NCBI GenBank assembly: GCA_031414955.1
Contig: JANOQV010000219.1
Coordinates: 1-22,292 of the forward strand
Reading direction: 5' to 3'
Source of the DNA: Pedosphaera sp.
GTDB lineage: Bacteria; Verrucomicrobiota; Verrucomicrobiia; Limisphaerales; SIBH01
Length of the DNA stretch: 22,292 nt
The notes beneath the pieces are model-generated. The model had not been told where the DNA came from and searched no databases. It saw nothing but the letters and a program-made list of their open reading frames with translations. Below, piece by piece: positions 1-17,543 of this stretch. A program made the position numbers and the translations under genes. Numbering within the stretch: the first letter of the stretch is position 1; every line of letters begins with the position of its first letter.

Positions 1-249
1 ATCAAGCCAGACCAGCGCGGCGTTCTCCTTTTCGTCCACCGGCGCGTACCAGGCATCAAGCTCGCGTCCGTTGGCCGGCTCGCCCGCAGCCTTGATGGCT
101 TTCAGGCGCTGGTGATTGGCCGACACGAGCGTGCCGCGCCACACGGCAAACGCCAGAATCAGCAGCACCAGCAAGACCGCCAGCACCATGATGAACTTCA
201 ACGCCAGTGGCATCGGGCGCCTGTTGTTGGATTCCAATGTCGGGTTCAT
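1..249 (-). CDS. Hypothetical membrane-anchored protein, N-terminal 83 aa only (continues past window start)
   Basis: Not in the ORF track. Manual translation from ATG at 249: MNPTLESNNRRPMPLALKFIMVLAVLLVLLILAFAVWRGTLVSANHQRLKAIKAAGEPANGRELDAWYAPVDEKENAALVWLD, open to base 1. The ATG overlaps the TGA of the upstream gene (ATGA, 246-249). One strong TM segment. Confidence 0.8.
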   Translation of the reverse strand, partial: MNPTLESNNRRPMPLALKFIMVLAVLLVLLILAFAVWRGTLVSANHQRLKAIKAAGEPANGRELDAWYAPVDEKENAALVWLD

Positions 250-2858
250 TCGCGGGTGATGGTTTCGTCGAGGTTCAAGAGCACGCGGGCCAGCGTCTTC
301 CAGGCTTCCTTGCGGCGCGTGAGTTCGTCGCCGGGTTCGGCGGCGAGCTGCTGGGCGAGGAGTTGTTGCAGGCGTTGCTGCTCGGTTTGGTTCGGCGGGC
401 GAGAGAGGCAGAGGCGGAACAGTTGATTGATTCGTTCCGCGTCATCCTTCGCCGGAGATTTCAGCGCGCGCTGACCAAGGGCTTCAGCGAACTCGGTGAA
501 CTGCTGGTCGTTCAAAAGCGTGAGCGCCTGGAGCGGCGTGTTCGAGCGTAGGCGGCGCGTGCAGGCGCTGAAGCCGTCGGCGGCGTCGAAGACGGCGAGC
601 GCGGGATGCGGCGTCGCGCGCCAGAAGTGCGTGTAGAGCGCGCGGCGGAAACGGTCGTCGCCGGTGCTGGCTTTCCATTCGCGCCGGGACTGGCCGAGGG
701 TCATCACGCCGTCGGGCTGCGGCGGATAGACGGGCGGGCCGCCGATTTTTTCCGAGAGCAGGCCGCTGGCGAAGAGCGCGTTGTCGCGAATCACTTCCGC
801 GTCGAGCCGCACGCGCGACTGGCGGGCGAGAAGTTTGTTGAGCGGATCAAGCGTCGCAAGTTCCGGCCGCACGCGTGACGACTGACGGTAGGCGGCGCTG
901 GTGACGATGAGGCGGTGGAGGCTCTTGAGACTCCACTTCGTAGCAGCCGACGTGAGGAGGCTCTGATCAATTCCGAGTTTCGGGTTTCGGGTTTCGGGTT
1001 TTTCAGATGGAGCCTCGTTACCTCGGCTGCTACCGGGGTTTTGAAACTCACCCGCCAGCCAGTCGAGCAGCTCGGGATGCGTGGGCAGTGAGCCTTGCGT
1101 GCCGAAGTCGTTTTCCGTCTCGACGAGGCCGCGTCCGAAGTAGTGCTGCCAGACGCGATTGACGGTGACGCGCGCCAGCAACGGATTCGCGGGCGACACC
1201 GTCCAGCGCGCGTGGTCGAGGCGGTTCGGAGCGCGTACGTCCACGTCGGCGCGATTCGTTTCGCATGAACGCGCGGACGTGGACGTCCGCGCTCCGTCCA
1301 GCGGATGAAGCACTGCGAGCACGCCGGGCGTCAGCTTTTCCGCCGGGCGCGTGAAGTCGCCTTTCGTGAACAGATGCGTCTCACGCGGTGTTTTAAGTTC
1401 CTGCATGACGAGCGTGGTCACGCGCTTGGGCGTGCCGCGTTCGAGGGCGGCGAGCTTCGTGTTGCGCGTCTTGAACTCCGTGTCGTCCGGCTTGAACGCG
1501 GCATAGACCGCGCGCTTCTGCTCTCGCGTGCGCTCGGCCCACGCAGGTTTCATGGCGGCGCGCACGTTCGCGCGCAGCTTCGCGCGCGCGTCGTCGGTCA
1601 GCGATTCCTCCCACTTCACCGCCGCGCTGCCCTTGGCGTTCAGGTAGCGGTCCAAGTCCTCGCGCGTTTCTTCCAGCTCTTTTTTCACGTTCTCCGCCGA
1701 CTCGATCTCGCCGGGGATTTCCAACATCCCGCCGGGCGTGCCGCTGCCGTGGCCGTCCTGGACGGTGGAATTGAAGAAGGCGTAAAGCTGGTAATACTCC
1801 TTCTGCGAAATGGGATCGAACTTGTGGTCGTGGCACTGCGCGCAGGCCACGGTCAGTCCGAGAAACACCGTGCCGAAGGTGCCCACGCGATCCATCACCG
1901 ACTCGACGCGGAACTGCTCGGGATCAATGCCGCCCTCCTGGTTGATCTGCGTGTTGCGGTTGAACCCTGTTGCGACCTTCTGCGCGAGCGTCGCATTCGG
2001 CAGCAAGTCCCCGGCGAGCTGTTCAATCGCGAACTGGTCGAACGGCATGTCGTTGTTCAGCGCGGCCACCACCCAGTCGCGGTATTTCCAAATCTGCCGC
2101 GGCGCATCAAGGCTGTAGCCGTTCGAGTCGGCGTAGCGCGCGGCGTCCAGCCACCAGCGGCCCCAGCGTTCGCCGTAGTGCGGCGAGGCGAGCAGACGAT
2201 CCACGGCGCGTTCGTAGGCGTCGGCGGCTTTGTCGTTCACGAACGCATCCACTTCCTGCGGCGTGGGCGGCAGGCCAATCAGGTCGAGATTCAACCGGCG
2301 CAGGAGCGTGGCGCGATCTGCTTCGGGCGCGGGCGTAATTTTTTCTTTCTCCAACCGCGCGAGGATGAAGGCGTCGATGGGATGACGCGATGCTGACCTT
2401 GGACTTTGGACCTTGGCCGCTGGACTTCCCGGCACCACCGGACGCACCGGCGGAATGAACGCCCAATGCTTCGCCGTCTCCGGCTGCTCATCCACCGGGG
2501 CTTTCGCGCCTTCGTCGATCCATTGCCCCAGCAGCGCCATCTGCGCGCCGCTCAACGGCGGCTTTTTGTACGGCATCTGCGAGATGGTGTCGTGCGTGCC
2601 TTTGACGGCCTGCATCAGGAGGCTCGCGCCGCTCTGGCCCGGCTTGAAGCCCGCGCCATTCTCGCCGCCCTTCCGCGCGGACGCGGCGGTGTCGAGGCGC
2701 AGATCCCCTTTCTGCTGCGCCGCGCCGTGGCATTTGTAGCAATGCTCGGTGAGCAGCGGCTTCACCTCGCGCAAGTAATTAACCGCCGCAGAACACGGCG
2801 CGAGTGCCAGGGCACTCACGGCCAAACTGAACCAGCGTGCTTTCACAATTGGGAACAA
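246..2858 (-). CDS. Planctomycete cytochrome c (PSCyt1) + DUF1549 (PSCyt2) + DUF1553 (PSD1) domain protein
   Basis: Signal peptide; heme motifs CYKCH and CAQCHDHKFDP; hallmark segments HWAF, PIDAFI, LDLIGLPPT, YGERWGRWWLDAARYADS, NRVWQHYFGRGLV, PTHPELLDWLA, SNTPLQALTLLN. Start may be TTG 2858 or GTG 2846. Confidence 0.95.
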   Translation of the reverse strand: MFPIVKARWFSLAVSALALAPCSAAVNYLREVKPLLTEHCYKCHGAAQQKGDLRLDTAASARKGGENGAGFKPGQSGASLLMQAVKGTHDTISQMPYKKPPLSGAQMALLGQWIDEGAKAPVDEQPETAKHWAFIPPVRPVVPGSPAAKVQSPRSASRHPIDAFILARLEKEKITPAPEADRATLLRRLNLDLIGLPPTPQEVDAFVNDKAADAYERAVDRLLASPHYGERWGRWWLDAARYADSNGYSLDAPRQIWKYRDWVVAALNNDMPFDQFAIEQLAGDLLPNATLAQKVATGFNRNTQINQEGGIDPEQFRVESVMDRVGTFGTVFLGLTVACAQCHDHKFDPISQKEYYQLYAFFNSTVQDGHGSGTPGGMLEIPGEIESAENVKKELEETREDLDRYLNAKGSAAVKWEESLTDDARAKLRANVRAAMKPAWAERTREQKRAVYAAFKPDDTEFKTRNTKLAALERGTPKRVTTLVMQELKTPRETHLFTKGDFTRPAEKLTPGVLAVLHPLDGARTSTSARSCETNRADVDVRAPNRLDHARWTVSPANPLLARVTVNRVWQHYFGRGLVETENDFGTQGSLPTHPELLDWLAGEFQNPGSSRGNEAPSEKPETRNPKLGIDQSLLTSAATKWSLKSLHRLIVTSAAYRQSSRVRPELATLDPLNKLLARQSRVRLDAEVIRDNALFASGLLSEKIGGPPVYPPQPDGVMTLGQSRREWKASTGDDRFRRALYTHFWRATPHPALAVFDAADGFSACTRRLRSNTPLQALTLLNDQQFTEFAEALGQRALKSPAKDDAERINQLFRLCLSRPPNQTEQQRLQQLLAQQLAAEPGDELTRRKEAWKTLARVLLNLDETITRE
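940..1033. repeat. Intragenic GTAG-tagged REP doublet (REPIN-like) with (TTTCGGG)n spacer
   Basis: Left arm 940-963 GTAGCAGCCGACGTGAGGAGGCTC; reverse complement of 1010-1033 is GTAGCAGCCGAGGTAACGAGGCTC (21/24 identical). Spacer has four heptamers at 971-998. Confidence 0.88.
1227..1296. repeat. Intragenic GGAG-tagged REP doublet
   Basis: 1227-1253 CGGAGCGCGTACGTCCACGTCGGCGCG vs reverse complement of 1270-1296 CGGAGCGCGGACGTCCACGTCCGCGCG (25/27). The intact arm is itself a hairpin GCGGACG-TCCA-CGTCCGC. Confidence 0.88.
2394..2428. repeat. Degenerate heptamer tandem repeat (GGACYTT-like x5) inside the PSD1 gene
   Basis: TGACCTT GGACTTT GGACCTT GGCCGCT GGACTTC; encodes roughly GSPAAKVQSPRS between HWAF and PIDAFI. 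Confidence 0.55.
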
Positions 2859-2921
2859 CGCCGCGCAGTGTATCGGCCCGGACGGACGGACGCCAGCGTG
2901 TCGATCAAAGCGGCATTGGCT

Positions 2922-4502
2922 CTACTCTGGTAGAGCGTTTGGAAAATGCGGCGGCAACAGCTCTGGATCCACTGGCCGGGTGCGCTGCTTTTGTTCAAAC
3001 GAATCCAACTCCGACTGCGTGGCGGGTCGCGGCCAGACCATGTCGGTATTGAAGCGGCCAGACGCTGCGGCGCGACGCATCGGGTAACGACCTCCGAGCC
3101 GTTCTGAATCTACCATTTGCCCGCCGTTATCCACGCCATCCAATCCGACGGAGTAGAGCACGTAGCGACCGTCCTCGCCGCGCCGGTAGCGCAATTCCTG
3201 GCCATCCATAAAATCCGTTGTGATGGCCGGGAGAAAGGCCGGAACCAGGTCGCGCAACGAGGGCGGATAGGATTTGTGCTGAATCGCAAATCGCTCCAGC
3301 GCAACGGCGGTGACGATCAGCCTGCGCCTTGTTTCCGCCTCCGCCGCGCGCCTCAGGAGGCCTCCACGCTGAGTTTGCATACCCAAGCCCACCTGTTTCA
3401 GGTTCATGATTGAAACGATCCGCGAATGATTCGCGCCGCGAAAGACGACGAGATTCGTCGTGCCCGGGAGCGTCTGCATTTCTTTCCATGTCGCGCAAGC
3501 TGTCGCCCGTTTCAGTTCCTCACGACGATCGCGAAAATAGAGCAGCAAGGCTTTTTCATCTTCATAGCTGCCCTGATCGCGATAGCGGGCGTGCTGCCGA
3601 TAACCCTGCATCGCCGACCAGAGATTGCGAAACCCGACTCCTGGAGAACTGAGGACGCCCCGGAAAACTGGCCCCCAGCCGCCGATCTTTTCGCGGTAAC
3701 GCTCCGTTCGCGCGGTGCGGCAGATGCGGACCATGTTGGCGCAGGTCAACTCGGCGGTGACCGGCAGGCTTTCGAAGAATCTCACGGATTCCCATTCGCG
3801 TTGGAGCGCCAGGAGTTGAGCTTCATTCCAGCCATCGGTTTGCATGGATTCCCAGATCGCTTGTTCCGCACTGGTCACGCACGCGAATCGGACCAGGTGG
3901 CAAACGTCCGCCGGTTCGGGCGTCCACGCCGTCGCCATCCTTGAGAGCGCCAGGAGGTTGGTGAACACCACCCCGCTGTCGTTTTCGTGCATCGCCAGCA
4001 CGGCGCGCACGGCGAGTGTCTGGGCGAGCCGCTTGTAACCCGCGACGTAAGGCAAACGAATGTCGCCGCGAAGGTCCGGCTGAAATTGAACCGGCCCGGC
4101 CATCAAGGCGGCGCAGGCGCGGTTCAGTTCCTGATCGGGGCCGGCCAATTCCTCTCGCAGCAACGGCCAAAGGTTGGTGGTCCGATCCGTCGCGATGACC
4201 TCGACTGTCGAGACGGCCAATGCGGTGTTCGTGCCCATCGTTTCCTTGGGCTACAGTTCATGGATGGCGCGCAATGCGCGGACAGCTTCGCCGGCGGCAA
4301 TGATGGTCTGCGCCCGGTTCGTTGACTCGGTGGAAAGCGCAAACGTGAAATCCGAAAGCTCAGTTCGGAGGCCCTGCTGGCGCAACTGAAGCCGGATTCG
4401 CTCCACCGAAGCGCGCAGCGTGTGGCCCGACCATGCAAACCAGCCAAAAACGGCAAGCGCGATGGGCAACAGCACTCCGGCGATTTTCAGCCATCTTTTC
4501 AT
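2922..4502 (-). pseudogene. Membrane-anchored hypothetical protein with GspG/pseudopilin-like C-terminal motif, interrupted by an in-frame TAG at 4253-4251
   Basis: ORFs 4511-4251 and 4238-2922 are in the same frame, separated by TAG plus 4 sense codons (HEL*PKETMGTN). Upstream part has MKRWLK plus a TM segment; downstream part ends ALERF..YPPSLRDLVP..DFMDGQELRY..LYSVGLDGVDNGG. Could also be a split gene or a sequencing error. Confidence 0.7.
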
Positions 4503-4630
4503 TTCGCGCACGATTCAGGAGGGGCCAAGTCTGTTTTGAATGAACACACTCCCGACCTTCGCGTTCAAGCTTCATTCGGGTCGTAAATTCTTCGCGACGA
4601 TTCAGGCTGGTTCCGTTTCAATGCCCGCAG

Positions 4631-5851
4631 ATGAAAATATCCCTCCTCGCTCTCGCCTGCGCTGTGGCGGTTTCGCTACCGGCGCAGTTGCCCACCACCT
4701 CACCCAGGGCCGCCGGGTTTGATCCGGCGCGGCTCGAAGTGTTGCACGCGACGACGAAACGGTTCGTGGAGGAGGGAAAGCACGCGGGCCTTATCACTCT
4801 GCTCGCGCGTGACGGGAAGATCGTGGACTTCCAGAATTACGGCTATCGCGACGTGGAGAAGCAGTTGCCGATGGAGCGCGACACAATTTGCCGGGTGTAT
4901 TCGATGTCCAAGATCATCACCTGCGCCGCCACGTTGATTCTGTTCGAGGACGGGAAATTCAACCTCGACGATCCGGTTGCGAAGTATCTGCCGGAGTTGA
5001 AGGACATGAAGGTGTGGACGAACGGCACGACCGAGGCGCTCAAGCGGCCCGTCACCATCAAGCATCTGCTCACGCACACGAGCGGATTGATCTACGATTT
5101 TGCAGGCAACGATGAACTGACGAAGCTCTGGCGTGCGGCGGAGTTATGGAGCGGGCCGGGACTGACAAATTTCACCGCGAAGCTCGGCAAGCTGCCGTTG
5201 AAGCATCAGCCGGGCGATGCTTACACCTATGGCGTGAATCAGGACGTGCTGGGCGCGTTGATCGAGCGCGTGTCCGGCGAGCGGTTCGGCGCGTTTCTGG
5301 AGGCGCGGATGTTCGATCCGTTGGGGATGAAGGACACAGGCTTCGATGTGCCGCCGGCCAAGATGAACCGGCTGGCGAAGACGTACAAGCTGGAAGGCGG
5401 AAAGTTCATCGAGGACAAGCCGATCATTGAGACGTGGCCGGAGGAGGGCAAGGGAATCGAAGCGGGCGGCGCGGGAATCTTTTCCACGGCGGGTGATTTC
5501 GCGCGCTTCGCACAAATGCTCTGCAACGGCGGCACGCTCGGCGGCAAACGCATCCTGGGCCGCAAGACCGTTGAACTGATGACGGCGAATCACATGGTCA
5601 CGCTGCCGAACAACCAGGCCGCGACGCGCCAGAAGGGGTTTGGCCTCGGCGTGGAAGTGACGACGGACCTTGGCCAGCTTTCGGTGCCGTCATCCATCGG
5701 GCAATTCGGCTGGTACGGCGCGGCGACAACCTACTGCCAGATTGATCCCAAGGAGCGGATTGTGGCCATCGCGCTGGCGCAGCACTTCCCGTTCAACCAG
5801 CACAACTTCTTTGCGGTCTTCCAGACGGGGTATTATCAGGCGCTGAAGTGA
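4631..5851 (+). CDS. Secreted serine hydrolase, beta-lactamase class C/EstB-like family
   Basis: Signal peptide; SxxK motif (YSMSK), LLTHTSG, PG..YTYG, FDPLGMKDTGF, GGAGIFSTAGDFARFAQML, FGWYG. Confidence 0.93.
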   Translation: MKISLLALACAVAVSLPAQLPTTSPRAAGFDPARLEVLHATTKRFVEEGKHAGLITLLARDGKIVDFQNYGYRDVEKQLPMERDTICRVYSMSKIITCAATLILFEDGKFNLDDPVAKYLPELKDMKVWTNGTTEALKRPVTIKHLLTHTSGLIYDFAGNDELTKLWRAAELWSGPGLTNFTAKLGKLPLKHQPGDAYTYGVNQDVLGALIERVSGERFGAFLEARMFDPLGMKDTGFDVPPAKMNRLAKTYKLEGGKFIEDKPIIETWPEEGKGIEAGGAGIFSTAGDFARFAQMLCNGGTLGGKRILGRKTVELMTANHMVTLPNNQAATRQKGFGLGVEVTTDLGQLSVPSSIGQFGWYGAATTYCQIDPKERIVAIALAQHFPFNQHNFFAVFQTGYYQALK

Positions 5852-5883
5852 CAAGCGCGGCCCGGCACGAGCGCCGGGGGAAA

Positions 5884-6006
5884 TTTGGACTGCGGCGGCA
5901 ATTCGGACGCGACTCCGCTTTCGGATAGGCCCGGGTTCTCGAACTATCAGATCCCTGCCTCGTGCGAAAGCGCCGGTGCCGCTCCGCTCGGCCGGTGCCG
6001 TCCAAA
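5884..6006. repeat. Intergenic degenerate inverted repeat (REPIN-like), TTTGGAC...CGCTTTCG / CGAAAGCG...GTCCAAA
   Basis: Arms 5884-5923 and 5965-6006 have perfectly complementary outer (7 nt) and inner (8 nt) ends with a diverged GC-rich middle. Confidence 0.65.
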
Positions 6007-6097
6007 ATGATCTTCGGGGCCTTTGAAAATTCTCTCGTTTCACTGTCGCCTCTCGGCGGTTCGCTTGGTAGAAACGCAGCCGAACACCAATACATTT

Positions 6098-6748
6098 ATG
6101 AACATTCATGTGCCTCGCCGACAGTTTCTCCGCCACGCCGCCTTCACCGCCGCGCTGTTCACCACGCCCGGCTTGTTCGCGGATTTGCTCCAGACGCCCA
6201 AGCAGACCGAAGGGCCGTTTTACCCCGACCATCTGCCGCTCGACACGGACAACGACCTGCTCGCCATCAACGAGAACCTCACGCCCGCCGTGGGCGAGGT
6301 GACTTACGTGAGCGGACGCATCCTCGACGCGAAGGGCGACCCGTTGCGCAATGCTGTGGTGGAAATCTGGCAGTGCGACCACAACGGCGCGTATCTGCAC
6401 AGCAAGACCGGCAACAAGGAAAAGGCGGACAAGAACTTCCAGGGCTTCGGGCGTTTCGTGACGGGTTCCACGGGCGAATATCTGTTCCGCACCATCAAGC
6501 CCGTGCCGTATCCGGGCCGCGCCCCGCACATCCATTACAAGATCAAGCGCGGCGGGAAGGAACTGCTGGTCACGCAGCTTTACATCAAGGGTCATGCCGG
6601 CAACGAGAAGGACGGCATTTGGAAGAATCTCAAGGCCGGCAAGGAACGCGATTCAGTGACGGTGGACTTCGCGCCGCTCAAAGGTGCGAAGGCCGGGGAA
6701 CTGGCGGCGAAGTTTGACCTCGTGGTCGGCGTGACGCCGGCGGCCTGA
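6098..6748 (+). CDS. Intradiol ring-cleavage dioxygenase-like protein (protocatechuate 3,4-dioxygenase family) with Tat signal
   Basis: PRRQFL twin-arginine signal after ATG 6098; TEGPFYP, VEIWQCDHNGAY, FRTIKPVPYPGRAPHIH supply the Tyr/Tyr/His/His iron ligands typical of the family. Confidence 0.92.
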   Translation: MNIHVPRRQFLRHAAFTAALFTTPGLFADLLQTPKQTEGPFYPDHLPLDTDNDLLAINENLTPAVGEVTYVSGRILDAKGDPLRNAVVEIWQCDHNGAYLHSKTGNKEKADKNFQGFGRFVTGSTGEYLFRTIKPVPYPGRAPHIHYKIKRGGKELLVTQLYIKGHAGNEKDGIWKNLKAGKERDSVTVDFAPLKGAKAGELAAKFDLVVGVTPAA

Positions 6749-6912
6749 GCGCCACGCGGAGAGAATCACAAGCTGCGCTGACCATCCGCCCTTTCAACAT
6801 GCGACCTCTCGTCCGGTGAAAACTGAGTCCGAGGAATGTGAATGGGATCAGTGCCTGGCTTCCCTGCGCAGGCGGGGTGCAGCGCTGCGGTCCGCCTCGG
6901 TCAAAAACCGCG

Positions 6913-6941
6913 TTGAAGAAACGCCCCGGCTCAACTAATTT
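6913..6941 (+). promoter_or_regulatory. Putative sigma70 promoter, leaderless-type, for the rhomboid gene
   Basis: TTGAAG (6913-6918) - 17 nt - TAATTT (6936-6941) - 7 nt - ATG (6949); no Shine-Dalgarno. Confidence 0.55.
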
Positions 6942-6948
6942 CGCCGCC

Positions 6949-7827
6949 ATGCTCGAAGACCGCTCCTACATGCGGGCCGATCCGCACCGCCCGGCGTGGA
7001 GTGCCACGGCCCTGCTCATGGTCGCGGTGGTGGCGTGCTTCGCCTTGCAGTGCATCGCGATGGTTTACGGGCGGCAGGAGGCTTGGATTTACCACCATCT
7101 CGCCTTGAGCACGGACGGGCTGAAGAGCGGCTATGTCTGGCAATTGCTCTCGTTCCAATTCCTGCACGCCGGATTCTGGCATGTCGTCTGCAATCTGGTC
7201 GGCCTTTGGTTCTTCGGGCGCACGGTCGAGGAGCGATTGGGGGCGCCTGCGTTCCTAAAACTCTATTTCCTGGCGGGGCTGGTCGGTGGGGTTTTGCAGG
7301 CGGGCCTGGGCTGGGTGGCCCCGGACTTCTACGGGAAAGTCCCCACGGTCGGAGCTTCGGCGGGAGTGTGCGGGCTAATCGCGGTTTTCGCGCTGCTGGA
7401 GCCGGATGCGGAGATTCGAGTGCTGGGAGTGCTGCCCATAAAGGCCCGGCATTTCCTTTGGGTTTCTGGAGGCGTGGCCGCTTTCTTCACTTTCGTGCCC
7501 CTGGGCGGTGGTTACGCCCATGCGGCGCATCTGGGCGGATTTCTTTCCGGTGTGGTTTCCATGCGTTGGAGCATCAACCGCCCGGCGCTCCATTGGAACC
7601 CCCTGCAAGGCCGCCGCCGCAAGCGCCAACTCGTCCAGGCTGCGGCGCAAATCACCCGGTGGCGCGGTCGTCCGGATGACTCCGTCTCTCCGCTTCCGCC
7701 CGAGGAATTCATCAGCAAGGAAGTTGATCCTATTCTCGACAAAATTTCCGCCCACGGCATCCACAGCCTGACCCCGCGTGAGCGCCAGATTCTCGAAGCG
7801 GCGCGCGCGAAGATGGCGAAGCGGTGA
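6949..7827 (+). CDS. Rhomboid family intramembrane serine protease with C-terminal DUF6576-like tail
   Basis: WQLLSFQFLH..HVVCN, catalytic GASAG and AHLGG, multiple TM segments, tail EVDPILDKISAHGIHSLTPRERQIL. Start placed at ATG 6949 (MLEDRSYMR). Confidence 0.93.
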   Translation: MLEDRSYMRADPHRPAWSATALLMVAVVACFALQCIAMVYGRQEAWIYHHLALSTDGLKSGYVWQLLSFQFLHAGFWHVVCNLVGLWFFGRTVEERLGAPAFLKLYFLAGLVGGVLQAGLGWVAPDFYGKVPTVGASAGVCGLIAVFALLEPDAEIRVLGVLPIKARHFLWVSGGVAAFFTFVPLGGGYAHAAHLGGFLSGVVSMRWSINRPALHWNPLQGRRRKRQLVQAAAQITRWRGRPDDSVSPLPPEEFISKEVDPILDKISAHGIHSLTPRERQILEAARAKMAKR

Positions 7828-7961
7828 CCGAGCATCTTCGGGTGCCGCAGTCCCAAGCACATCCGGGCGAATTTACGAATCGTGGCAATCCGTCAAGCAG
7901 ACGACGTGGGAACTTCCTGGCCAGGCCCCGTTCCTGACTTTTCAGGGCCAGCAGCCCGGAT

Positions 7962-8068
7962 TGGCAGAAAGATTTCCTGGCAGAAAAATGCGGGGGCATG
8001 GGGAGAAAGCGGACGGCATGGCAGACTTTTGTCCCGGCTGATTTTTCTGCCAGGAAATCTTTCTGCCA
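7962..8068. repeat. Perfect 28-bp intergenic inverted repeat with internal TGGCAGAAA direct repeats
   Basis: 7962-7989 TGGCAGAAAGATTTCCTGGCAGAAAAAT is the exact reverse complement of 8041-8068; 51-nt spacer. Confidence 0.9.
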
Positions 8069-8317
8069 GGAGCCTCGCGTCCCGGCTCGCCAGTCTTTGG
8101 TTCAGCAGTTCTTGCCTCGTCTTGGCGAATACGCTCTGCAATCACACCAAGGCGCATCTCCCCGTACTTGCCCTGGTCGATCCGTGAGGCGAGCGAGCCT
8201 TTCGGTTGGCCGAAACTCAATGCCAATTCCCGCTTGTTTTAGCAGAGAGCAGGACTAGTGTTCCAACCGTAGTCCATATTTCCATGACGGCACCGTCGTC
8301 GAACGACCTTATCAGTT

Positions 8318-9346
8318 ATGAAAACACTCGTTGTTCTCTTCATAGTGGGCTCCTGCCTGATCTTGCGAACGAACCTCAATGCTCAAGGGCAGGTAATCTT
8401 TGCGAATAACGCGGCCATAGCCGTGACAAATACGCTTACCGGCGCCGCAGTCGTGAGCGGCAACACTTTTCATGTGGCGCTCTACGCGGCGCCGGACGGA
8501 ACGACCGATGAATCTGCTTTCTTCCTTGTTACCGAAACCAATTTTTTCGCTGCGGGACGATTTAATAAAGGCACGATCAGCATTCCGGGCTTTGGTGGCG
8601 GCACTTATGTGATGTTTCAAGTTCGAGTTTGGGAAATGGCCTACGGCAGCACTTATGACCAGGCTGCCGCCGCGTCGCCGATGAATGGGCGTTATGCCCT
8701 GCTGGGAAAATCGGTCCTCATCCGCTTCCTGCTGACTCAGCCGCCCTCACTTCCCTATTACATCTATACCGCGGGTTTGAATCCCATCCGGCTGACCGCC
8801 CAACTCGTGCCCAGTTTCTTCATCAACAGCATCGTTGTGGCCGAAGGCACCAATGGCACGAAGGACGCGGTCTTCACCGTCTCGCTCAGCAGCCCGCTCG
8901 CGGAGTCCGCCAGCGTGGATTTTGCCACCGCGGACGGCACGGCCGTGGCCGGGTCGGATTACGTGGCCACGAATGGCACGCTCAACTTCGCGGCCGGTGA
9001 GACCAATAAGACCATCACCGTGACGCTCACACCCGACCCAGCCGCAGAGGAGGACGAGGATTTTTCGGTCGTGCTCTCAAATGGGGTGAGTGGGCCGGTG
9101 GCACAAGGCACGGGCACCTGCCTGATCACCGAAGTTCGTGTGGTGGGACTGCGCATGGATATTGCAATCACCTTCAATACGATTGCCGGCCATCATTACA
9201 GCGTCGAATGGACCCAGGATCTCGTGACCTGGCAGGCGGTGAGCGGCGGGGAGGATATCGTCGGCCTTGGCGGCAACATGTCTGTTTACGATCAAGGCGT
9301 GAATCCCCAGGGCGGGCGATTTTACCGGGCGCGTCTGATCGAATAG
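8318..9346 (+). CDS. Secreted protein with Calx-beta domain and C-terminal 'FYR' domain
   Basis: Signal peptide ending NAQG; Calx-beta signature VAEGT..FTVSLS..SVDFATADGTAVAGSDYVATNGTLNFAAGETNKTITV..DEDFSVVLSN; C-terminus YSVEWTQDLVTW...RFYRARLIE. Confidence 0.85.
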   Translation: MKTLVVLFIVGSCLILRTNLNAQGQVIFANNAAIAVTNTLTGAAVVSGNTFHVALYAAPDGTTDESAFFLVTETNFFAAGRFNKGTISIPGFGGGTYVMFQVRVWEMAYGSTYDQAAAASPMNGRYALLGKSVLIRFLLTQPPSLPYYIYTAGLNPIRLTAQLVPSFFINSIVVAEGTNGTKDAVFTVSLSSPLAESASVDFATADGTAVAGSDYVATNGTLNFAAGETNKTITVTLTPDPAAEEDEDFSVVLSNGVSGPVAQGTGTCLITEVRVVGLRMDIAITFNTIAGHHYSVEWTQDLVTWQAVSGGEDIVGLGGNMSVYDQGVNPQGGRFYRARLIE

Positions 9347-9381
9347 AGCGGAGTATCCCCGGTTTCTCCAACTGCGGGTTC

Positions 9382-9411
9382 TTGCCCTCCGTGCTCGGCC
9401 GCAACTAAGCT
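9382..9411 (+). promoter_or_regulatory. Putative sigma70 promoter, leaderless-type, for xylB
   Basis: TTGCCC (9382-9387) - 18 nt - TAAGCT (9406-9411) - 7 nt - ATG (9419); no Shine-Dalgarno. Confidence 0.5.
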
Positions 9412-9418
9412 GCGCGCC

Positions 9419-10951
9419 ATGCGCACTCTTCTTCTCGGCATCGACAGCGGCACGCAATCGACCAAGGTCGTGGCGGTGGACGCCAAAAACGGCAACGTGC
9501 TCGGCACGGGGGCCCAGGCTTACGAATTGATTCCCAATCTCCCGCCCGGCGCGAAGGAGCAACATCCCCACACCTGGCGCGACGCCACAGCCAAGGCCAT
9601 CCGACAGGCGTTGCGCGGGGCCAAGGCCGTCGCGGCGGAGGTCAAGGCCATCGGCGTGAGCGGCCAGCAGCATGGCTTCGTGCCGCTGGATGCGAAGGGT
9701 GAAGTGATTCGTGCCGCCAAACTCTGGTGCGACACCTCAACTGCGGCCGAGTGCGAACAGATCATGTCCGCGCTGGGCGGACAGAAGGAAACCATCAAGG
9801 CCATCGGCAACTCGGTGTTGCCGGGATTCACCGCGTCGAAGATTCTCTGGCTCAAGAATCACGAACCGCAGAACTACAAGAAGCTCGCCACCGTTTTGCT
9901 GCCGCACGACTACCTGAACTTCTGGCTCACCGGCGAGAAGGTCATGGAGTTCGGCGACGCCAGCGGCACGGCGCTGCTCGACGTGCGCAAGCGCAAGTGG
10001 TCCGCGCCCGTGCTCAAGGCCATCGACGAGGATCTGGCGGGCAAGCTGCCGCCGATTCTGTTCAGCAACCAGGCCGCCGGGCGATTGCAGCGCGGCGTGG
10101 CCAACGAACTGGGCTTGAACACCGACGTGCTGGTCAGTGCGGGCGGCGGCGACAACATGATGGGTGCCATCGGCACCGGCAATACGCGCGCCGGAGTCAT
10201 CACGGCCAGCTTCGGGACGAGCGGAACCATCTACGCCTGCGCGGAGAAACCGGTCGTCGATCCGCGCGGCGAGATCGCGTCGTTCTGTGACTCGACGAAC
10301 CGCTGGCTGCCGCTGCTCTGCACGATGAACGTGACCGTGGCCACCGAGATGGTGCGCAACGATTTCAAGATGACGCACGATCAGTTCGCCACCGCGGCCT
10401 CGCGCGCGCCCGCTGGCTGCGATGGCCTGTTCCTGCTCCCGTATCTCGAAGGCGAGCGCACGCCCAACGTGCCGGACGGCACGGGTGTTTATCTCGGAGT
10501 GAACTCGCGCACCTTTACCGGGCACCATTTCGCGCGCGCCACGATGGAAGGTGTGACGCTGGGCATGAACTACGGCCTGCGCCGTCTCGCCCAACTCGGT
10601 GTGGAGCCGGCGCAGATTCGCGCCACCGGTGGCGGCGCGAGGTCGAAGCTTTGGCGGCAAATCATGGCCGATGTTTTCAACGCCGAGGTCGTGACGCTCA
10701 AGGTGAGTGAAGGCGCGGCCTACGGCGCGGCGCTCCAGGCGCTCTGGTGCTGGCGCCAGCACCAGGGCGAGAAGGTGGAGATCGCCGACATCACCGACGA
10801 GTTCGTGGAGATCAACAAATCCGAGACGGCCACACCGAACAAAAAAAACGTCGAGGTCTATCGCGAATTGCAGGCCTTGCAGGACGAAGCCTCGAAGTCT
10901 TTGCGCGGTGTCTTTGCGGAGCATCGGAAGTTTGTGCTGCGGCCCGATTAA
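9419..10951 (+). CDS. xylB: Xylulokinase (FGGY carbohydrate kinase family)
   Basis: LGIDSGTQSTK, GVSGQQHG, LWCDT, GFTASKILWL, LLPHDYLNFWLTG, GDASGT, GGGDNMMGAIGTG, SFGTSGT, LPYLEGERTP, TGGGARS. Confidence 0.9.
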   Translation: MRTLLLGIDSGTQSTKVVAVDAKNGNVLGTGAQAYELIPNLPPGAKEQHPHTWRDATAKAIRQALRGAKAVAAEVKAIGVSGQQHGFVPLDAKGEVIRAAKLWCDTSTAAECEQIMSALGGQKETIKAIGNSVLPGFTASKILWLKNHEPQNYKKLATVLLPHDYLNFWLTGEKVMEFGDASGTALLDVRKRKWSAPVLKAIDEDLAGKLPPILFSNQAAGRLQRGVANELGLNTDVLVSAGGGDNMMGAIGTGNTRAGVITASFGTSGTIYACAEKPVVDPRGEIASFCDSTNRWLPLLCTMNVTVATEMVRNDFKMTHDQFATAASRAPAGCDGLFLLPYLEGERTPNVPDGTGVYLGVNSRTFTGHHFARATMEGVTLGMNYGLRRLAQLGVEPAQIRATGGGARSKLWRQIMADVFNAEVVTLKVSEGAAYGAALQALWCWRQHQGEKVEIADITDEFVEINKSETATPNKKNVEVYRELQALQDEASKSLRGVFAEHRKFVLRPD

Positions 10952-11070
10952 CCTTTCGGCCCCGCGAATACTCCAATTCTTCGGTCTTCGTTGGGGCGGG
11001 CCGGGCGGGTGCCGGCCAGAAAATCGGCACTTTCCTCCCTCCGACTCATTTGCTTAGGTTCCGCCCCTTT

Positions 11071-11802
11071 ATGTTGAAACATCATCTGCTCGCGACGTTG
11101 ATTTTGAGCCTGACCATCCCGGCTTCCATGGGTGCGGCAGAAATCCCCAACGCGCAACAGGACCAAGCGGAGCCTCCGCAAGTCTCGCCCGCCCCGCGCG
11201 ACCTGACCAACGAGCCGCGCGGGCGAGAACTCGACCGCTGGAGTTTTCAGGCGGGGGTCGCCGCCATCACTGATTCAGCGATCGGTGATTTGTTCCGGGG
11301 CGACGCCCAGAGACCTTCGAGCGAGGCGCGCGGGGAGATTTATCTCCTGCAGGTCTCTCGCAAGCTGGCGGAGTTCAAGCCGGAATTGTGGGGCCAAGAG
11401 ATGAAGTTAGATCTCGAACTGCCCCTGGTGCTCGGAGTGGTCAATGAGGATGGCGATGGTTCCTTCCTGCAGTACAGTGGCGGCCTGACCTTGCGGTGGA
11501 AACATTTTCCCTGGAATCACTGGCTCTATACCAATCTCGAAACGGGTGTGGGTCTGACCTACAGCCAGCATGTCTTGGCCACGGAACGCGAACGCCTTTC
11601 CGGGCGCGAGCGTTCCCACCTCGAGTTTTACTGGCCGTTACAACTGATGCTGGCGCATCCGCAGCATCGCGAGCATCAGTTGGTCCTGTTTATTCACCAT
11701 CACTCCGGCGGCGGCATCTTCCACCGGGGTGGCGCGAACAGCGTCGGGATTGGTTATCGCTATGTCATCGGTGAGCGGAAAGCCAGGCGGGCCGGCGCGT
11801 GA
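11071..11802 (+). CDS. Putative outer-membrane beta-barrel protein, PagL/acyloxyacyl-hydrolase-like
   Basis: Signal peptide from ATG 11071; amphipathic strands LTLRWKHFPW, ETGVGLTYS, LVLFIHHHSGG, GANSVGIGYRY; H-x-S motif near the C-terminus as in PagL-like enzymes. Function is inference. Confidence 0.6.
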   Translation: MLKHHLLATLILSLTIPASMGAAEIPNAQQDQAEPPQVSPAPRDLTNEPRGRELDRWSFQAGVAAITDSAIGDLFRGDAQRPSSEARGEIYLLQVSRKLAEFKPELWGQEMKLDLELPLVLGVVNEDGDGSFLQYSGGLTLRWKHFPWNHWLYTNLETGVGLTYSQHVLATERERLSGRERSHLEFYWPLQLMLAHPQHREHQLVLFIHHHSGGGIFHRGGANSVGIGYRYVIGERKARRAGA

Positions 11803-11869
11803 ACGGCGAGTGAGGCACGAAACCGCTACCCGCCGACATTAGAATGTGAAACTCTTGGGTCGGCCCTTG

Positions 11870-11964
11870 ACACCGCAGGATCAGTGAAGTTGTCAGGAAT
11901 CTTGATCCAGATTCCAAGTCCGGTGCTGCGCCTCTTCGCAGCACAAAAGTGCATCCTGCGGTGT
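11870..11964. other. Structured intergenic element: 12-bp terminal inverted repeat enclosing two hairpins (MITE-like or cis-regulatory RNA)
   Basis: ACACCGCAGGAT 11870-11881 / ATCCTGCGGTGT 11953-11964; GGAATCT 11896-11902 / AGATTCC 11909-11915; GTGCTGCG 11923-11930 / CGCAGCAC 11937-11944. Confidence 0.6.
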
Positions 11965-11989
11965 GGTGGCCCAAACGCGGAGTCGAAGT

Positions 11990-13423
11990 ATGAGAATAAT
12001 TGAAGCCTCGAATTGTTTGCCGAGGGGGCGCGGATTGCTCCTGGCCTTGTGTCTTTTCGGCTGGCCTGGGTTCGCCGCCAACCAGGCGGCCAAACTTCCT
12101 GAGACCTTCGACGTGAAAGCCATCGATGCCTGGCTCGCTGAACAGGTGAAGCAGCCTGGGCGCGTGGGGATGTCTGTCGCCATCGTGCAGGACGGTCAGG
12201 TGGTGCTGGCCAAAGGCTACGGCCAGCGCTCGCTCGCGGATGGCCGTCCGGTCGAGGCCAATACGCTCTTCGCCATCGGCTCGGTCAGCAAACAGTTCAT
12301 CTGCGCCGCCGTGCTGCTGCTCGCGGATGACGGCAGGCTCTCGGTCACGGAGCCCGTCGCAAAATATTATCCCGACCTCACGCGAGCGAAGGACCTCACG
12401 CTGCTCGATTTGATGAATCACGTCTCGGGCTACCCGGATTATTACCCGCTCGACTTCGTGGACCGCCGCATGACGCGCAAGATTGATCCGGACGAATTGC
12501 TTCGCCAGTACGCGGGCGGCAAGCTGGACTTTGAGCCGGGATCAAAATGGTCTTATAGCAACACCGGTTACATCCTGCTCGGTCGGGTCGCGGAGAAGGT
12601 GAGTGGCATGACGCTCGGTGAATTTCTCTCGCGCAGGATTTTCCAGCCGCTTGGCATGACGCATTCATTCTACGAACTTGATCCATCCGACCGCCGGCTG
12701 GCCTCCGGCTACGCGACCTTTGCCTTGAGCGATCCCGAACTGGTCGGGGCCGAAGGTCAGGGCTGGCTCGGCGGTGCCGGCGGCATCTACGCCACGCCCG
12801 GCGATCTGGCGAAGTGGAACCTTGCCCTCATGGGCGGCAAGCTGCTCAAGCCTGAAACTTACGCGCTGATGACGACGGCGCGGAAGCTGAACGACGGCAA
12901 ATTCGCGGACTACGGCTGCGGGTTGTCGGTCAAGTTGCAGGGCGGGCGGCAAGTGCTGGCGCACAACGGAGCCGTCAGCGGGTTCAACACTTACAGCGCC
13001 ATGGTTCCTGCCAAGCGTGCAGCGGTGATCGTCATGGTGAACATCGAGGGCGGACTTGGTTCGATCCCCGGCCAGCTTTTTTCGCTGCTGCTCAAGGAGA
13101 CGTCGAACGTGCCGACCGTCAAGGCCGCTCCGGCTGCGGAAACTGTGAAGGCTGTCTTCGCCGAGATGCAGCAGGGAAAGATCAACCGCGCCAAACTGGC
13201 CGAGGAGTTCAACCTGTATCTGAACGACGCCCGGCTGGCCGGTGCGGGGCGGCGGTTGAAATCCTACGGCCCGCCGACCAAGGCCGATGTGTTGAGCAGC
13301 AACGAGCGCGGCGGCATGGAAGTCACCACCACGCGTCTGACCTTCAAGAGTGGTAACCTCAAGGTGCTGATGTACCGCACACCGGAGGGCAAGATTGAGC
13401 AGTTCTTTGTGAACCGGGAGTAG
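11990..13423 (+). CDS. Secreted serine hydrolase, beta-lactamase class C/AmpC-like family, with extra C-terminal domain
   Basis: Signal peptide; GSVSKQF (SxxK), WSYSNTGY (YxN), LAHNG; about 100-aa C-terminal extension. Start ATG 11990 or GTG 11963. Confidence 0.92.
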   Translation: MRIIEASNCLPRGRGLLLALCLFGWPGFAANQAAKLPETFDVKAIDAWLAEQVKQPGRVGMSVAIVQDGQVVLAKGYGQRSLADGRPVEANTLFAIGSVSKQFICAAVLLLADDGRLSVTEPVAKYYPDLTRAKDLTLLDLMNHVSGYPDYYPLDFVDRRMTRKIDPDELLRQYAGGKLDFEPGSKWSYSNTGYILLGRVAEKVSGMTLGEFLSRRIFQPLGMTHSFYELDPSDRRLASGYATFALSDPELVGAEGQGWLGGAGGIYATPGDLAKWNLALMGGKLLKPETYALMTTARKLNDGKFADYGCGLSVKLQGGRQVLAHNGAVSGFNTYSAMVPAKRAAVIVMVNIEGGLGSIPGQLFSLLLKETSNVPTVKAAPAAETVKAVFAEMQQGKINRAKLAEEFNLYLNDARLAGAGRRLKSYGPPTKADVLSSNERGGMEVTTTRLTFKSGNLKVLMYRTPEGKIEQFFVNRE

Positions 13424-13542
13424 GCCGGAGCAGGAACCGGGTAGATCGAGTCCCAATTGGTGCGACATCATGCCCGCGCTCCCCGCGCGAGCAAACAGGC
13501 GTGCATTTCGCGCCCTTTGGCTCAATCATCACTCGCCTTAGC

Positions 13543-14211
13543 ATGATCCCAGCACCCTGGAATTCCGAAGCAGCCGCCCGCAGCGACGACGACAGCCTGC
13601 CCACGCGCGGCAGCCTGCTGCACCGCCTGCGCGATGCCGGTGATGACGCGAGCTGGCGGACTTTCTTCGAGACCTACTGGCGGCTCATCTACAACGTGGC
13701 GCGCAAGAGCGGACTGTCCGACGACGTGGCGCAGGAGGTCGTGCAGGAGACGGTCATCTCGGTCGCGCGCAAGATGCCGGAGTTTCGTTACGACCCGCAG
13801 ACGGGTTCCTTCAAGCAGTGGCTGCTGCTCATCACGCGGCGGCGGATTCAGGATCATCTGCGCAAATTTTACCGTGCCTTGCCTGTCGCTGATGTCACTG
13901 CTGAGATAGCCGAACACCGTATGGCAACGCTGCCCTCGCCGGTGCTTCCGCCGGACGCGGCCATCGAGGCGGCGTGGGAAGAGGAATGGCGTGAAACTAT
14001 TTTCCAGACCGCGCTGGCCCGGGTGCGAGCGCAGGTGAATCCCAAGAGCTACCAGGCGTTCGACTATTGCGTGCTCCAGAATTTGCGCGCGCCGGCCGTG
14101 GCGAAGATGCTCGGGCTGAACGTGGCGCAGGTTTATCTCGCGCGGCATCGCGTCAGCCAGGCGGTCAAGCGCGCGGCGGCCGAGGTGGAGGAGGAATTCA
14201 AACTCGGCTGA
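13543..14211 (+). CDS. ECF sigma-70 family RNA polymerase sigma factor (kinase-associated type)
   Basis: PTRGSLLHRL, WRTFFETY..LIY, AQEVVQET, GSFKQWL (sigma2); VAKMLGLNVAQVYLARHRV (sigma4 HTH). Directly upstream of a Ser/Thr kinase; no anti-sigma gene nearby. Confidence 0.93.
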   Translation: MIPAPWNSEAAARSDDDSLPTRGSLLHRLRDAGDDASWRTFFETYWRLIYNVARKSGLSDDVAQEVVQETVISVARKMPEFRYDPQTGSFKQWLLLITRRRIQDHLRKFYRALPVADVTAEIAEHRMATLPSPVLPPDAAIEAAWEEEWRETIFQTALARVRAQVNPKSYQAFDYCVLQNLRAPAVAKMLGLNVAQVYLARHRVSQAVKRAAAEVEEEFKLG

Positions 14212-14238
14212 AAGATTCGCGCCCCGCAGGCGAACTCA
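14209..14238 (+). promoter_or_regulatory. Candidate ECF-dependent promoter, copy 1 (kinase)
   Basis: TGAAAGATT-N12-GCGAACTCA ending 12 nt before the kinase ATG; near-identical copy at 17504-17533. Confidence 0.65.
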
Positions 14239-14250
14239 ATCCCAGACACG

Positions 14251-17200
14251 ATGTCAACGCCGCTCGAGGAAAAACTCCCGGACCCCGGAACCGCCACTGC
14301 GGAATCGGAGCGGTCGATGCGCGCCGCCGTGGAATTCAAGCTGGGCGGAACGGCGGAACCGCGGCCCGCGCCACCAGTGATTCCCGATCACACGCTGCTC
14401 CGGCGGATTGGCCGGGGCGCGTATGGCGAAGTGTGGCTGGCGCGCAGCACGCTCGGGACTTTGCGCGCGGTGAAGGTGGTCCATCGCGCGGACTTCGAGG
14501 ACGAGCATCCCTACGAGCGCGAGTTCCGAGGCATCCTTAAATACGAACCGATTTCCCGCACGCACGAGGGGCTGGTGCAGGTGCTGCACGTCGGACGCAA
14601 CGACGCGGCGGGGTGTTTCTACTACGTGATGGAGTTGGCGGATGGGGTGAAGGGGAAAGTAATCAGTGAGTCAGTAATCGGTAAATCAGTCGGGACTCAT
14701 CCGCGTGGGCCGACCGGTTCACTGAACACTGATTCACTGATTACTGATTACTTTCCCAAAACGCTCCGCTCCGAACTCAAACAGCGCCAGCGTCTCGCTC
14801 CTGCCGACGCGGCGCAACTGACGCTGCGGCTCGCCAGCGCGCTCGCGCATCTGCACGCGCACGGGCTGGTGCATCGCGACGTCAAGCCGGGCAACGTGAT
14901 CTTCGTGAATGGTCAGCCCAAGCTCGCGGACATCGGGCTGGTCGCGGGCGCGGGCGACTCGCGAAGTTTTGTGGGCACGGAAGGTTTCATTCCGCCGGAA
15001 GGGCCGGGCACGGCGCAGGCGGACATTTATTCGCTCGGCAAACTGCTCTACGAACTCGCGACGGGCCGCGACCGTCTGGACTTTCCGCAACTGCCGCCGC
15101 TGGGAGTGGAAGGTAGTGAGCCTCGCGCTGCGAGGCCAGTGGGGGACGCAACGACGAACGATGAACTTCGCTCGCAGCGCGAGCGAAGCCACCTTGATGA
15201 CGCCCTGCTGGAATTGAACGAAGTGATGACGCGCGCCTGTGCGCCGGACTTGCAGCAGCGTTACGCGAGCGCCCCGGAAATGCAGGCGGAACTCAATCTG
15301 TTCCTTGCGGGCCGCAGCCTGCGCCATTCGCGCAACGTGGAACGGAATCTGGCGCGCTTGAAAAAGTTTGCCATTGCCGCGTGTCTGTTTCTGGCGGTGG
15401 CTGCGGTGGCGCTGTGGTTCTCGAAACGCGAGGAGCATCACGCGCGCGAACGGGCGAATGCCGAGACCACGCTCCGTCTGCGTGCGGAAACCGCCGAGCA
15501 CGAAGCACGGCAGCAGCTTTACACCGCGCTGTTAGAACAGTCGCGCGCCACGGTGCGCAGCGGCGCGATTGGGCAGCGGGTGCGCTCGCTCGACGCCGTG
15601 CGGAGGGCGGCCTCGATTTCCAACACCATCGAGTTGCGCCGGGAGGCGGTGGCCGCACTCGCGCTGCCTGATGTTCGCTTCGAGCGCGAATGGTTCGGCG
15701 GGAGCGACGTGACGGCGGTGCAGTTCGATTCGGATTTCCAGCGTCTGGCCGTGTCGCGCGGCACCAATGCGGTGGAGATTCGCGCCGTCGCGGATTTTCG
15801 AGTGCTCGCCACGTTGCCCGCCAGTCGCATCGGCGCGTGCCTCCGCATAGCGTGGAGCGCGGGCGGCCGTTATCTGGCGGTGCGGCGCGATCACGCTGCC
15901 GACGGAGAGCGTGCGGATGTGGAGGTGTGGGAGTTGACCGCGACGAACCGCGTCTTGCTCCTGCGCGACGTGCCGCGCGGCACCTTGGGGTTCCATCCCA
16001 CTCTGCCGCGGCTCGTCACCGCCACTCGCGACGGACCGATCCTCGTCCGGGATCTGGAAAGCGGGAAGGAACTGGCGTTGTTCGGCGTCAACGGCGTGCC
16101 GGACGCGCTGGAATTTTCACCCGACGGGAAACGGATCGCGGCGAGTTATCCGTCCGGCGGTGCGTGGATGATTTCCGTCCATGACGCGGAGAGCGGCGAC
16201 GTGCGGGCGTCGGTCCGTTTTGCCAATCGCATTCCCAATCTGGCGTGGCATCCGGACGGGCCGTGGCTGGCCGTGCCCGACTACGGTGGCAACGTGCATC
16301 TCGTGGACGCGCGCACCGGCGCGTTCAGCGTGCTGGGCCGGCACAAGGCCGCGGCCTACACCGTGGTGTTCAGTCCCGACGGGCGCTTTCTGATCAGCGG
16401 CGGCTGGGATCGTGAATTGATTTGCTGGGACGTGTTCACGCGCCAGCGTTCGTTCACGCTGCCTGTCGAGAGCTGGAATCTGCGCTTCCGGGCCAACGGC
16501 CAGCATTGCGCGGTGGTGGGGAATGGGCGCGTGCAATTCTTTGCCTTTGAATCGCCCAGCAGTCATCGGGAGTTCGGGATCGCGCTGGGGGCGAACGTGA
16601 ATCACGCCGCCTTTTCACCGGATGGCTGTTGGCTCGCGGCATCCGGCGACCGACGCCTGGGCCTGTGGAATCTGACCAATGAATCATCGCCCGCACTGGC
16701 CGGTGAGGCTGCGGATGCCCGCCCCTTTTTCACGCCGGACTCCAAGGAACTCTTCGGCAGCAGCCGCGAAGATGCGGGCTTCCGCTGGCGTATCGCTGCG
16801 GGTGACGACGCTTTGGTTCGCCTCGAACGAATGCCGTTGTCTAAGCCGGCGGATTACACCGCGCTGTGTCTGGCGTCGAACCGCGTCGTCTGGACCCTCC
16901 GCCAGGGATCACGTCTGCTGGCGCTGGACGAAGTGCCGGACGATGACGACTGGATGCACACGCTTTCGGGCGTGAGCCGGGCGTCACCGCGCGGCGAGTG
17001 GCTCGCGGTTTTCCGTCCGTTCACGCCGTCGCTGCGGGTGTATCGCCTGCCGGAACTGGTGGACGCCGCGAAGTTCACCGCTCTGGCGAACATTTCCGCC
17101 GCGAGTTTTTCGTCGTCGGGACGCGAGGTCGTCACCGTCGCGCGCAACACCGCCGAGTTCTGGGACATCGCCAGCGGCCAGCGCACGCGTGTGTTGAGCA

Positions 17201-17439: not shown

Positions 17440-17503
17440 ACGAGCCGGCCGTTCCATTGCCGTCCCTCCCAAACCGGGCGGACGAAAAATTCTTTCCACC
17501 CGG

Positions 17504-17533: not shown

Positions 17534-17543
17534 GAGCCGAACG

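Follow-up and report, generated by a model that had tools for sequence, protein, structure and literature searches.

The 22,292-nucleotide stretch of Pedosphaera sp. DNA analysed here (the window; contig JANOQV010000219.1, C219 in our numbering, of assembly GCA_031414955.1, our genome G000) raises the question of how several unrelated repetitive elements came to lie in frame inside two of its protein genes, and what becomes of such sites over time. A preliminary description of the window, made from its sequence alone, had placed four inverted repeats and one heptamer tract within two intact open reading frames (ORFs), and the positions, folding scores and stop-free frames that we obtained all agree with this. 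The answer that we favour, and consider probable though by no means certain, is that the inserts are members of multi-copy hairpin and heptamer families, the gene-less offspring of mobile cassettes, which survive in tolerant loops, where one insert offers the next a neutral site to land. The host genes and the elements within them are the following.

246..2858, minus strand: host gene 1, encoding a PSCyt1 (planctomycete cytochrome c)/DUF1549/DUF1553 protein of 870 residues; intact, as judged by ORF, domains and orthologs
940..1033: E1, a 94-nt doublet of repetitive extragenic palindromic (REP) elements, GTAG-tagged with the tags outside; residues 609-640 of host gene 1
974..1002: heptamer tract nested in the E1 spacer
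1227..1296: E2, a GGAG-tagged REP doublet of 70 nt; residues 521-544 of host gene 1
2394..2428: E3, a heptamer tract; residues 144-155 of host gene 1
14251..17439, plus strand: host gene 2, encoding a Ser/Thr kinase with WD40 repeats, 1062 residues; intact, as judged by ORF and domains
14653..14757: E4, a 105-nt hairpin with arms of heptamer/octamer arrays and without a REP tag; residues 135-169 of host gene 2
15110..15195: E5, a GTAG/GTGG-tagged REP doublet of 86 nt; residues 287-315 of host gene 2

E1, E2 and E5 are built as REPs, in which a short hairpin follows a tag (GTAG, GGAG or GTGG) and the doublets have their tags outside, and in E1, as in E5, swapped stem pairs distinguish the two arms. 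E3, E4 and the E1 spacer are instead heptamer arrays that carry no REP tag. The multi-family REP system that had been proposed for the window therefore holds for the three tagged doublets but does not extend to the heptamer arrays. DNA folding gave z scores of -4.8 for E1, -8.2 for E2, -6.7 for E4 and -4.1 for E5, while only 1 of 60 random coding control windows reached -3 or lower. E3 forms no hairpin (z +2.1 for 2380-2440) and is likely the leftover single arm of a heptamer-armed hairpin.

All five elements are multi-copy in G000 (6.55 Mb, 62% GC, 313 contigs; completeness 96%, contamination 5.8%), as a count of arm copies had been meant to establish. Blastn of the arms gave 74, 11, 29, 16 and 38 hits for E1 to E5, respectively, and the merged loci numbered 34, 30, 32, 7 and 41. 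Doublets make up 14/34 of the E1 loci, 5/30 of the E2 loci and 17/41 of the E5 loci. Loci at least 90 nt inside called genes numbered 15/34 for E1, 3/30 for E2, 22/32 for E3, 4/7 for E4 and 18/41 for E5. The genome holds 288 tracts of period 7, compared to 12-20 for periods 4, 5, 8, 10 and 11. One repeat arm recurs in at least 124 stretches of our genome collection, and most of the 80 listed are labelled Verrucomicrobiota. E2, E3 and E5 were also present, with 0-3 differences, in public contigs from runs X1 and X2, which may be the source sample. Copy number, the excess of period 7, the folding scores and the X1 and X2 contigs together rule out chance or an assembly artefact.

The inserts keep the reading frame far more often than expected. 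Among 585 repeat loci in the genome, 116 have coding flanks on the same strand, and in 76 of these one frame is open throughout. In 38 of the remaining 40 the upstream stop lies at or before the element, as in an operon gap, and in 2 it lies inside or after it. Thus frame-shifting copies are rarer than chance, as the preliminary description had implied, with 2 broken against 76 open; taking three as broken, 76/79 frame-open loci against a random expectation of one in three gives p about 1e-32. Element lengths are not multiples of three. In-gene E1 doublets have a length of 1 mod 3 in 19/25 cases, compared to 25/70 elsewhere (Fisher p=0.0009), and none of the 25 uses the phase that reads the TAG of the tag. 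Overall, 67/402 REP loci and 53/183 heptamer loci are internal, in 105 genes, a depletion relative to a genome that is about 85% coding.

Insert-free alleles are known among orthologs for all five sites, which rules out ancient conserved peptides; the ortholog alignments that had been called for thus identify the peptides as insertions. The five elements encode 32, 24, 12, 35 and 29 residues (E1 to E5). The net gain over empty alleles is about +32 for E1, +16 to +19 for E2, +6 for E3, +23 for E4 and +25 for E5. These gains fall short of the element lengths because host codons are replaced, and an insertion that removes a few host codons was seen at four sites. The earlier view that the elements add loops of roughly 23-35 residues must be modified in the same sense: in-frame peptides of 12-35 residues are present, but they take the place of host codons and of other elements.

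The same sites are occupied by different tenants in related genes. At the E1 site 13/14 orthologs carry an insert, and these inserts come from at least 7 families, of which five could be recognised among 9 congeners; five paralogs in G000 are filled as well. The E2 site is either empty or occupied by one of four GGAG-tagged families; the E2 region also holds inserts without a detectable hairpin (8/11 of those scored in the bin), which points to tolerance; the insert caller used for this region and for the paralogs missed several known inserts. The E4 site of the kinase, which maps by alignment between PknA residues 100 and 103, holds differing hairpins across orthologs and paralogs and is short in 2/18. 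In an X1 contig the E4 flanks are joined by other letters, with 3 differences in the 137 downstream bases. The E5 site is filled in 2/19 and retains a remnant in a third. Across 120 homologs of host gene 1 (61-100% identity), length varies internally, where conserved anchors lie on either side, at the E3, E2 and E1 sites, the only other such stretch being residues 821-839 near the C-terminus. A length at least 10 residues above that of the shortest homolog was found in 72/120 at the E1 site and 59/120 at the E2 site. Clustering of the peptides gave 17 and 13 clusters, and since it chains families and leaves singletons these numbers are a rough guide only.

Elements also lie on or within one another. 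In 14/124 in-gene elements we found contact with, or inclusion of, another family, compared to 0.45 (maximum 4) expected for random placement over all genes and 3.0 (maximum 10) for placement within the same genes. Families paired with different genes, encoding transposases, four-helix-bundle proteins or DUF559 proteins, occupy common loops. The alignments suggest that the sites are surface loops; a single-sequence structure model was unusable (pLDDT 37). At the E3 site (alignment A2), heptamer remnants often swap about 10 native residues with the length unchanged, and they are in phase with the conserved motif that follows.

Such turnover could also come about by hairpin-directed exchange, in which the REP-associated tyrosine transposase (RAYT), and perhaps other cassette proteins, would cut at or beside a hairpin already in place and exchange it for another. 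We regard this as possible but rather doubtful. It would accord with the model of Ton-Hoang et al., where integration is recombination with a target that carries REPs or bacterial interspersed mosaic elements (BIMEs) (PMC3333891). The right-hand junction that four GGAG-tagged families have in common at the E2 site, the nesting above chance, and the 4 changes by which RAYT-bearing priA alleles (below) are distributed on the host tree, a quick version with weak support, speak for it as well. However, the same loops are used by families of unrelated genes (RAYT, four-helix bundle, DUF559) and by inserts that have no hairpin, and there is no co-conversion tract beside shared inserts (E1 site, G000 versus G003, p=0.40). 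Homing-like co-conversion had been considered because third-position identity was raised around E1 in this pair, and was rejected by that synonymous-site test. Applied to three sites, the test gave p<0.01 in only 1 pair, and that pair has no common element.

Genes for possible mobilising enzymes lie between arms of the same types. E1 arms bracket a RAYT gene in locus L113 (NF047646, E 7e-12, under the cut-off), in which the HUH and tyrosine motifs are visible. E2 arms bracket RAYT genes in L233 and L238 from other genomes, and E5 arms one in L354, over the cut-off, from another genome. By analogy with known systems, RAYT is likely the mobiliser of E1, E2 and E5. The search for RAYT genes between the same arms that the preliminary description had suggested was thus successful in these loci, but not, within the span searched, in G000 itself. 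G000 has 12 Y1 genes, 4 of them above the RAYT cut-off and one flanked by a family that also ends the window, and the nearest G000 relative of the three cognate RAYTs is 52% identical. A 4-6-nt direct repeat at the junctions was found in 0/99 E1 doublets, the one family in which we looked for target duplication, and this rules out target-site duplication for E1. A frameshift apparently affects one RAYT gene of G000, and a further Y1 gene is interrupted by a stop codon (L009 on contig C94 and L007 on C99). The gene upstream of the E1-type cassette (L113:1-1020) reads through the left doublet and contains another E1-like element.

The heptamer elements have a different neighbour. Inverted arrays of short units lie on both sides of all four genes for four-helix-bundle proteins (TIGR02436) in G000 (4/4, by eye). 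Across two sets of loci from G000 and its relatives, heptamer tracts were present on both flanks of four-helix-bundle genes in 10/30 and 20/38 loci, compared to 2/150 control genes, and an inverted 14-mer was present in 27/30 and 35/38, compared to 20/150 controls; in the set of 30 one N-masked locus was counted as negative, and from the set of 38 two short loci were dropped. E4-type arms flank these genes in 3/38 loci (L433, L434 and L437) and in L291, the E3-type unit gave one weak match, and the E1-spacer unit lay beside none (0/38). Adjacency alone links heptamer-armed hairpins to four-helix-bundle genes and makes the protein a candidate partner. A single REP system behind all elements is thereby ruled out for E3 and E4, which are heptamer arrays of the kind that flanks these genes. 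Long frames that seemed to fuse four-helix-bundle genes within hosts were, where checked, terminal read-throughs or overlaps. Adjacency likewise links inverted arms to GxxExxY genes (4/4, one with arms of the type at 7962) and hairpins of their own to DUF559 genes (1/2 matches). Directly behind paralogs of the DUF1549/DUF1553 gene in G000 we found a GxxExxY cassette (C117:12546-13556) and a four-helix-bundle cassette (C241:18029-18352).

Relatives of this genome carry whole cassettes in frame. In congeners, several Y1 matches fall within long frames (1035-1446 residues), and complete hairpin-RAYT-hairpin cassettes are in frame in priA of G003, G008 and G009 (L226, L227 and L230), in a gene of the sugar-kinase/UGPase type in G003, G007 and G009, and in carB of G010 and alaS of G006. 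Most in-frame cassettes (also L228, L229, L231, L319, L320 and L387-L426) keep the HUH and tyrosine motifs, and the open frames suggest that the RAYT would be read as part of the host protein. In the three priA-cassette genomes the search for priA gave one match each. The cassette falls between the equivalents of residues 211 and 218 in a PriA of solved structure, where other relatives have a single doublet, a heptamer hairpin or nothing. The UGPase site is likewise empty, single or full among congeners.

The wider order gave a similar picture. A search of 301 genomes of the order gave 318 matches; of the 150 listed, 62 lie in frames longer than 550 residues (hand count), and the 40 of these that we examined comprised 8 priA, 14 dinG, 3 clpB, 4 UGPase and 3 dnaE genes and 8 that resemble restriction, methylase or BREX genes. 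A protein search yielded 232 long relatives, whose hosts range from tRNA synthetases to DnaE. At 8 cassette sites G000 has a gene-less element in 3, two of them from families of the window itself: an E3-type tract in dinG, an E4-type hairpin in dnaE site 1 and another hairpin in priA. No element was found at the cassette site of clpB, UGPase or the two alaS copies of G000, and dnaE site 2 was ambiguous.

It follows to ask whether the window's inserts are footprints, that is, whether an in-frame REP-RAYT-REP or other cassette arrived first and recombination between its flanking hairpins then deleted the enzyme gene. Congeners that are empty, hold one hairpin or hold the full cassette at one and the same site (priA, sugar-kinase/UGPase) would fit such a course, as would the flanking doublets, which form direct repeats in frame. 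We nevertheless consider it unlikely. The window's host proteins are absent from the 40 in-frame RAYT hosts (0/40), and Pfam domains of Y1, DUF559, GxxExxY or four-helix-bundle type occur in 0/120 of the best homologs of host gene 1; no full cassette was found at the window's own sites among the homologs and hosts examined. The search with the E1-cognate RAYT gave no long relatives, which is weak evidence, and there are 585 hairpin loci against about 21 cassette-type genes.

The fused genes also bear on a possible function. Between G008 and G009 the RAYT fused in priA shows a dN of 0.037 and a dS of 0.392, similar to its host, and this purifying selection, together with the native length (about 10 residues) held by most heptamer remnants at the E3 site, would be compatible with inserts kept as variable surface peptides or mRNA hairpins, or removed from the RNA or protein. 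Purifying selection is, however, equally expected for a selfish or domesticated RAYT. Close relatives have unrelated peptides at one site, empty alleles persist, and no Rfam family was found in the window; we therefore find such a function or removal very improbable.

The reading that we prefer, of gene-less cassette offspring landing on earlier inserts, can be set out in four steps. First, by analogy, an HUH/Y1 RAYT would copy REP doublets on single-stranded DNA without target duplication; the pairing of arms and gene is observed here, whereas the enzymology is borrowed from E. coli. Second, a few host codons are lost on insertion, as seen at four sites. Third, selection would purge copies that shift the frame, bring a stop or hit the protein core, a cause that we infer for the pattern seen. 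Fourth, a later element would enter or adjoin the old, unconstrained insert and deletion would trim the pile, so that the tenant differs between close relatives; nesting and differing tenants are observed, and their order is what the step supposes. The largest tenants would be the complete REP-RAYT-REP cassettes, apparently read within the host protein.

Several points weigh against this reading. Pile-up would be predicted equally by an enzyme that targets resident hairpins. At the E2 site seven complete GGAG doublets from four families share an end nucleotide, which is neater than random landing and trimming predicts. In the searched span of the 96% complete G000 we found no RAYT with E1, E2 or E5 arms. 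The gene calls come from a hexamer model of our own (4598 genes, 85% coding), and decayed pseudogenes escape the flank test, so that broken copies are undercounted. A broader view, which we put forward as a tentative suggestion, would be that in this order RAYT, four-helix-bundle, DUF559 and GxxExxY cassettes and their gene-less offspring all seek resident hairpins and displace one another within proteins; loops of essential enzymes might then cycle between empty, hairpin-peptide and unspliced transposase-domain states, an intein-like niche without splicing.

Similarly built elements had also been described between the genes of the window. Three of these are multi-copy, but the one at 13461-13482 could not be upheld.

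5884..6006: hairpin doublet of a small family; 8 loci, 0/8 inside genes
7962..8068: hairpin with 28-nt perfect arms; 16 loci, 0/16 in genes; this arm type flanks a GxxExxY gene on contig C117
13461..13482, minus strand: unsupported as an intact element; at best the decayed remnant of one GGAG-tagged REP
22155..22292: GGAG-tagged REP element truncated by the contig end (first described as 22205-22292); 97 loci, 0/97 in genes

The last of these belongs to the commonest family of the genome, which flanks the RAYT gene L010. The sequence at 13461-13482 has no full-length copy in the genome and no hairpin (z -0.8). Families 5884, 7962 and 22205 are never intragenic despite stop-free phases in their units (a mean of 4.6-6 of 6), which could reflect their youth, their length or a choice of targets. 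Heptamer-armed hairpins of 100-170 nt span the gap between co-directional genes, from near stop to start, at 28 loci in G000 (for example C67:45600-45731 and C184:45155-45292).

In-frame REPs were already known in this phylum. The preliminary description had known of no account from Verrucomicrobia, but Di Nocera et al. (2013) published in-frame REPs of Opitutus terrae, in 70 rows (PMC3733652), so that the bare observation made here is a new example. Like ours, these GTAG REPs are tagged, belong to several families, occur singly or as doublets and are read in frame; they add 20-30 residues, can number several per gene, and have uvrA, dnaE2, a kinase and UGPase among their hosts (PMC3733652). 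Judged by peptides only, the families appear not to be the same, as the listed O. terrae peptides differ from those of E1, E2 and E5. Use of the same site is given there, in the text available, for Xanthomonas recB only, and that text contains no account of a turnover of families at a single loop, of in-gene heptamer hairpins or of in-frame cassettes of the REPtron type, all of which are seen here (PMC3733652).

Known REPtrons, formed by REPs, REPINs or BIMEs with a RAYT, share with our elements the tetranucleotide tag and hairpin, the doublets, the flanked HUH/Y1 gene and the lack of target duplication (PMC3333891, PMC8266576, PMC6006769, bioRxiv 10.1101/2021.07.10.451892). Single-strand cleavage and strand transfer by RAYT are reported there for E. 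coli in vitro and for other REPtrons (PMC3333891, PMC8266576). Unlike in those systems, up to 44% of the loci of one family are intragenic here, and many RAYTs of this order sit internally in long frames. Quentin et al. mention in-frame REPs within RAYT genes and dropped long RAYT proteins as fusions or annotation errors (PMC6006769). Rickettsia palindromic elements (RPEs) are also in-frame palindromic repeats that add peptides to unrelated genes; they measure about 150 bp and encode a conserved peptide (PMC10969869). The elements here measure 65-105 nt, keep their arms conserved but vary in the spacer, and have candidate enzymes.

ORF-bearing 23S rRNA intervening sequences can be grouped with inverted heptamer pairs as close known systems. 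The heptamer pairs that Rehm et al. (2015) described from Xanthomonas and Nostoc are likewise arrays, mostly intergenic and in some cases intragenic; in contrast, many heptamer units occur here, they flank four-helix-bundle genes and they share loops with REPs, and four-helix proteins go unmentioned in the accessible part of that paper (PMC4692102). The literature that we searched, which covered few subscription journals, contained no paper on family turnover at one loop or in-frame RAYT cassettes, nor one on four-helix-bundle or GxxExxY hairpin cassettes. Within this searchable literature, what is new is that shared, reused loops connect whole transposase cassettes with heptamer hairpins and REP doublets.

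Within one genus, a single loop provides matched alleles that are empty, hold a hairpin or hold a whole cassette, which makes both the insertion of REP doublets and the targeting of resident hairpins by RAYT directly testable, the latter having hitherto been seen in vitro only. The elements give a DNA-level origin for long, variable, low-complexity inserts in these proteins, and the four-helix-bundle proteins are candidates for a partner of the heptamer repeats of bacteria. Annotation can also be misled by such inserts and by fused RAYT domains, and one RAYT survey filtered them out.

Both priA (C56 and C223) and alaS (C94 and C20) occur twice in G000, which fits the contamination of 5.8%, so that a second strain may enter the genome-wide counts. 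A single-copy imperfect inverted repeat (11851-11983; 31-nt arms, 71%), which also lacks an Rfam match, overlaps the start of the second beta-lactamase-family gene of the window and lies just upstream of it. A gene for an ECF (extracytoplasmic function) sigma factor lies directly 5' of the kinase-WD40 gene (13501-17439), and the latter is followed by a gene for a 1500-residue autotransporter-repeat (PATR) protein (17388-21989).

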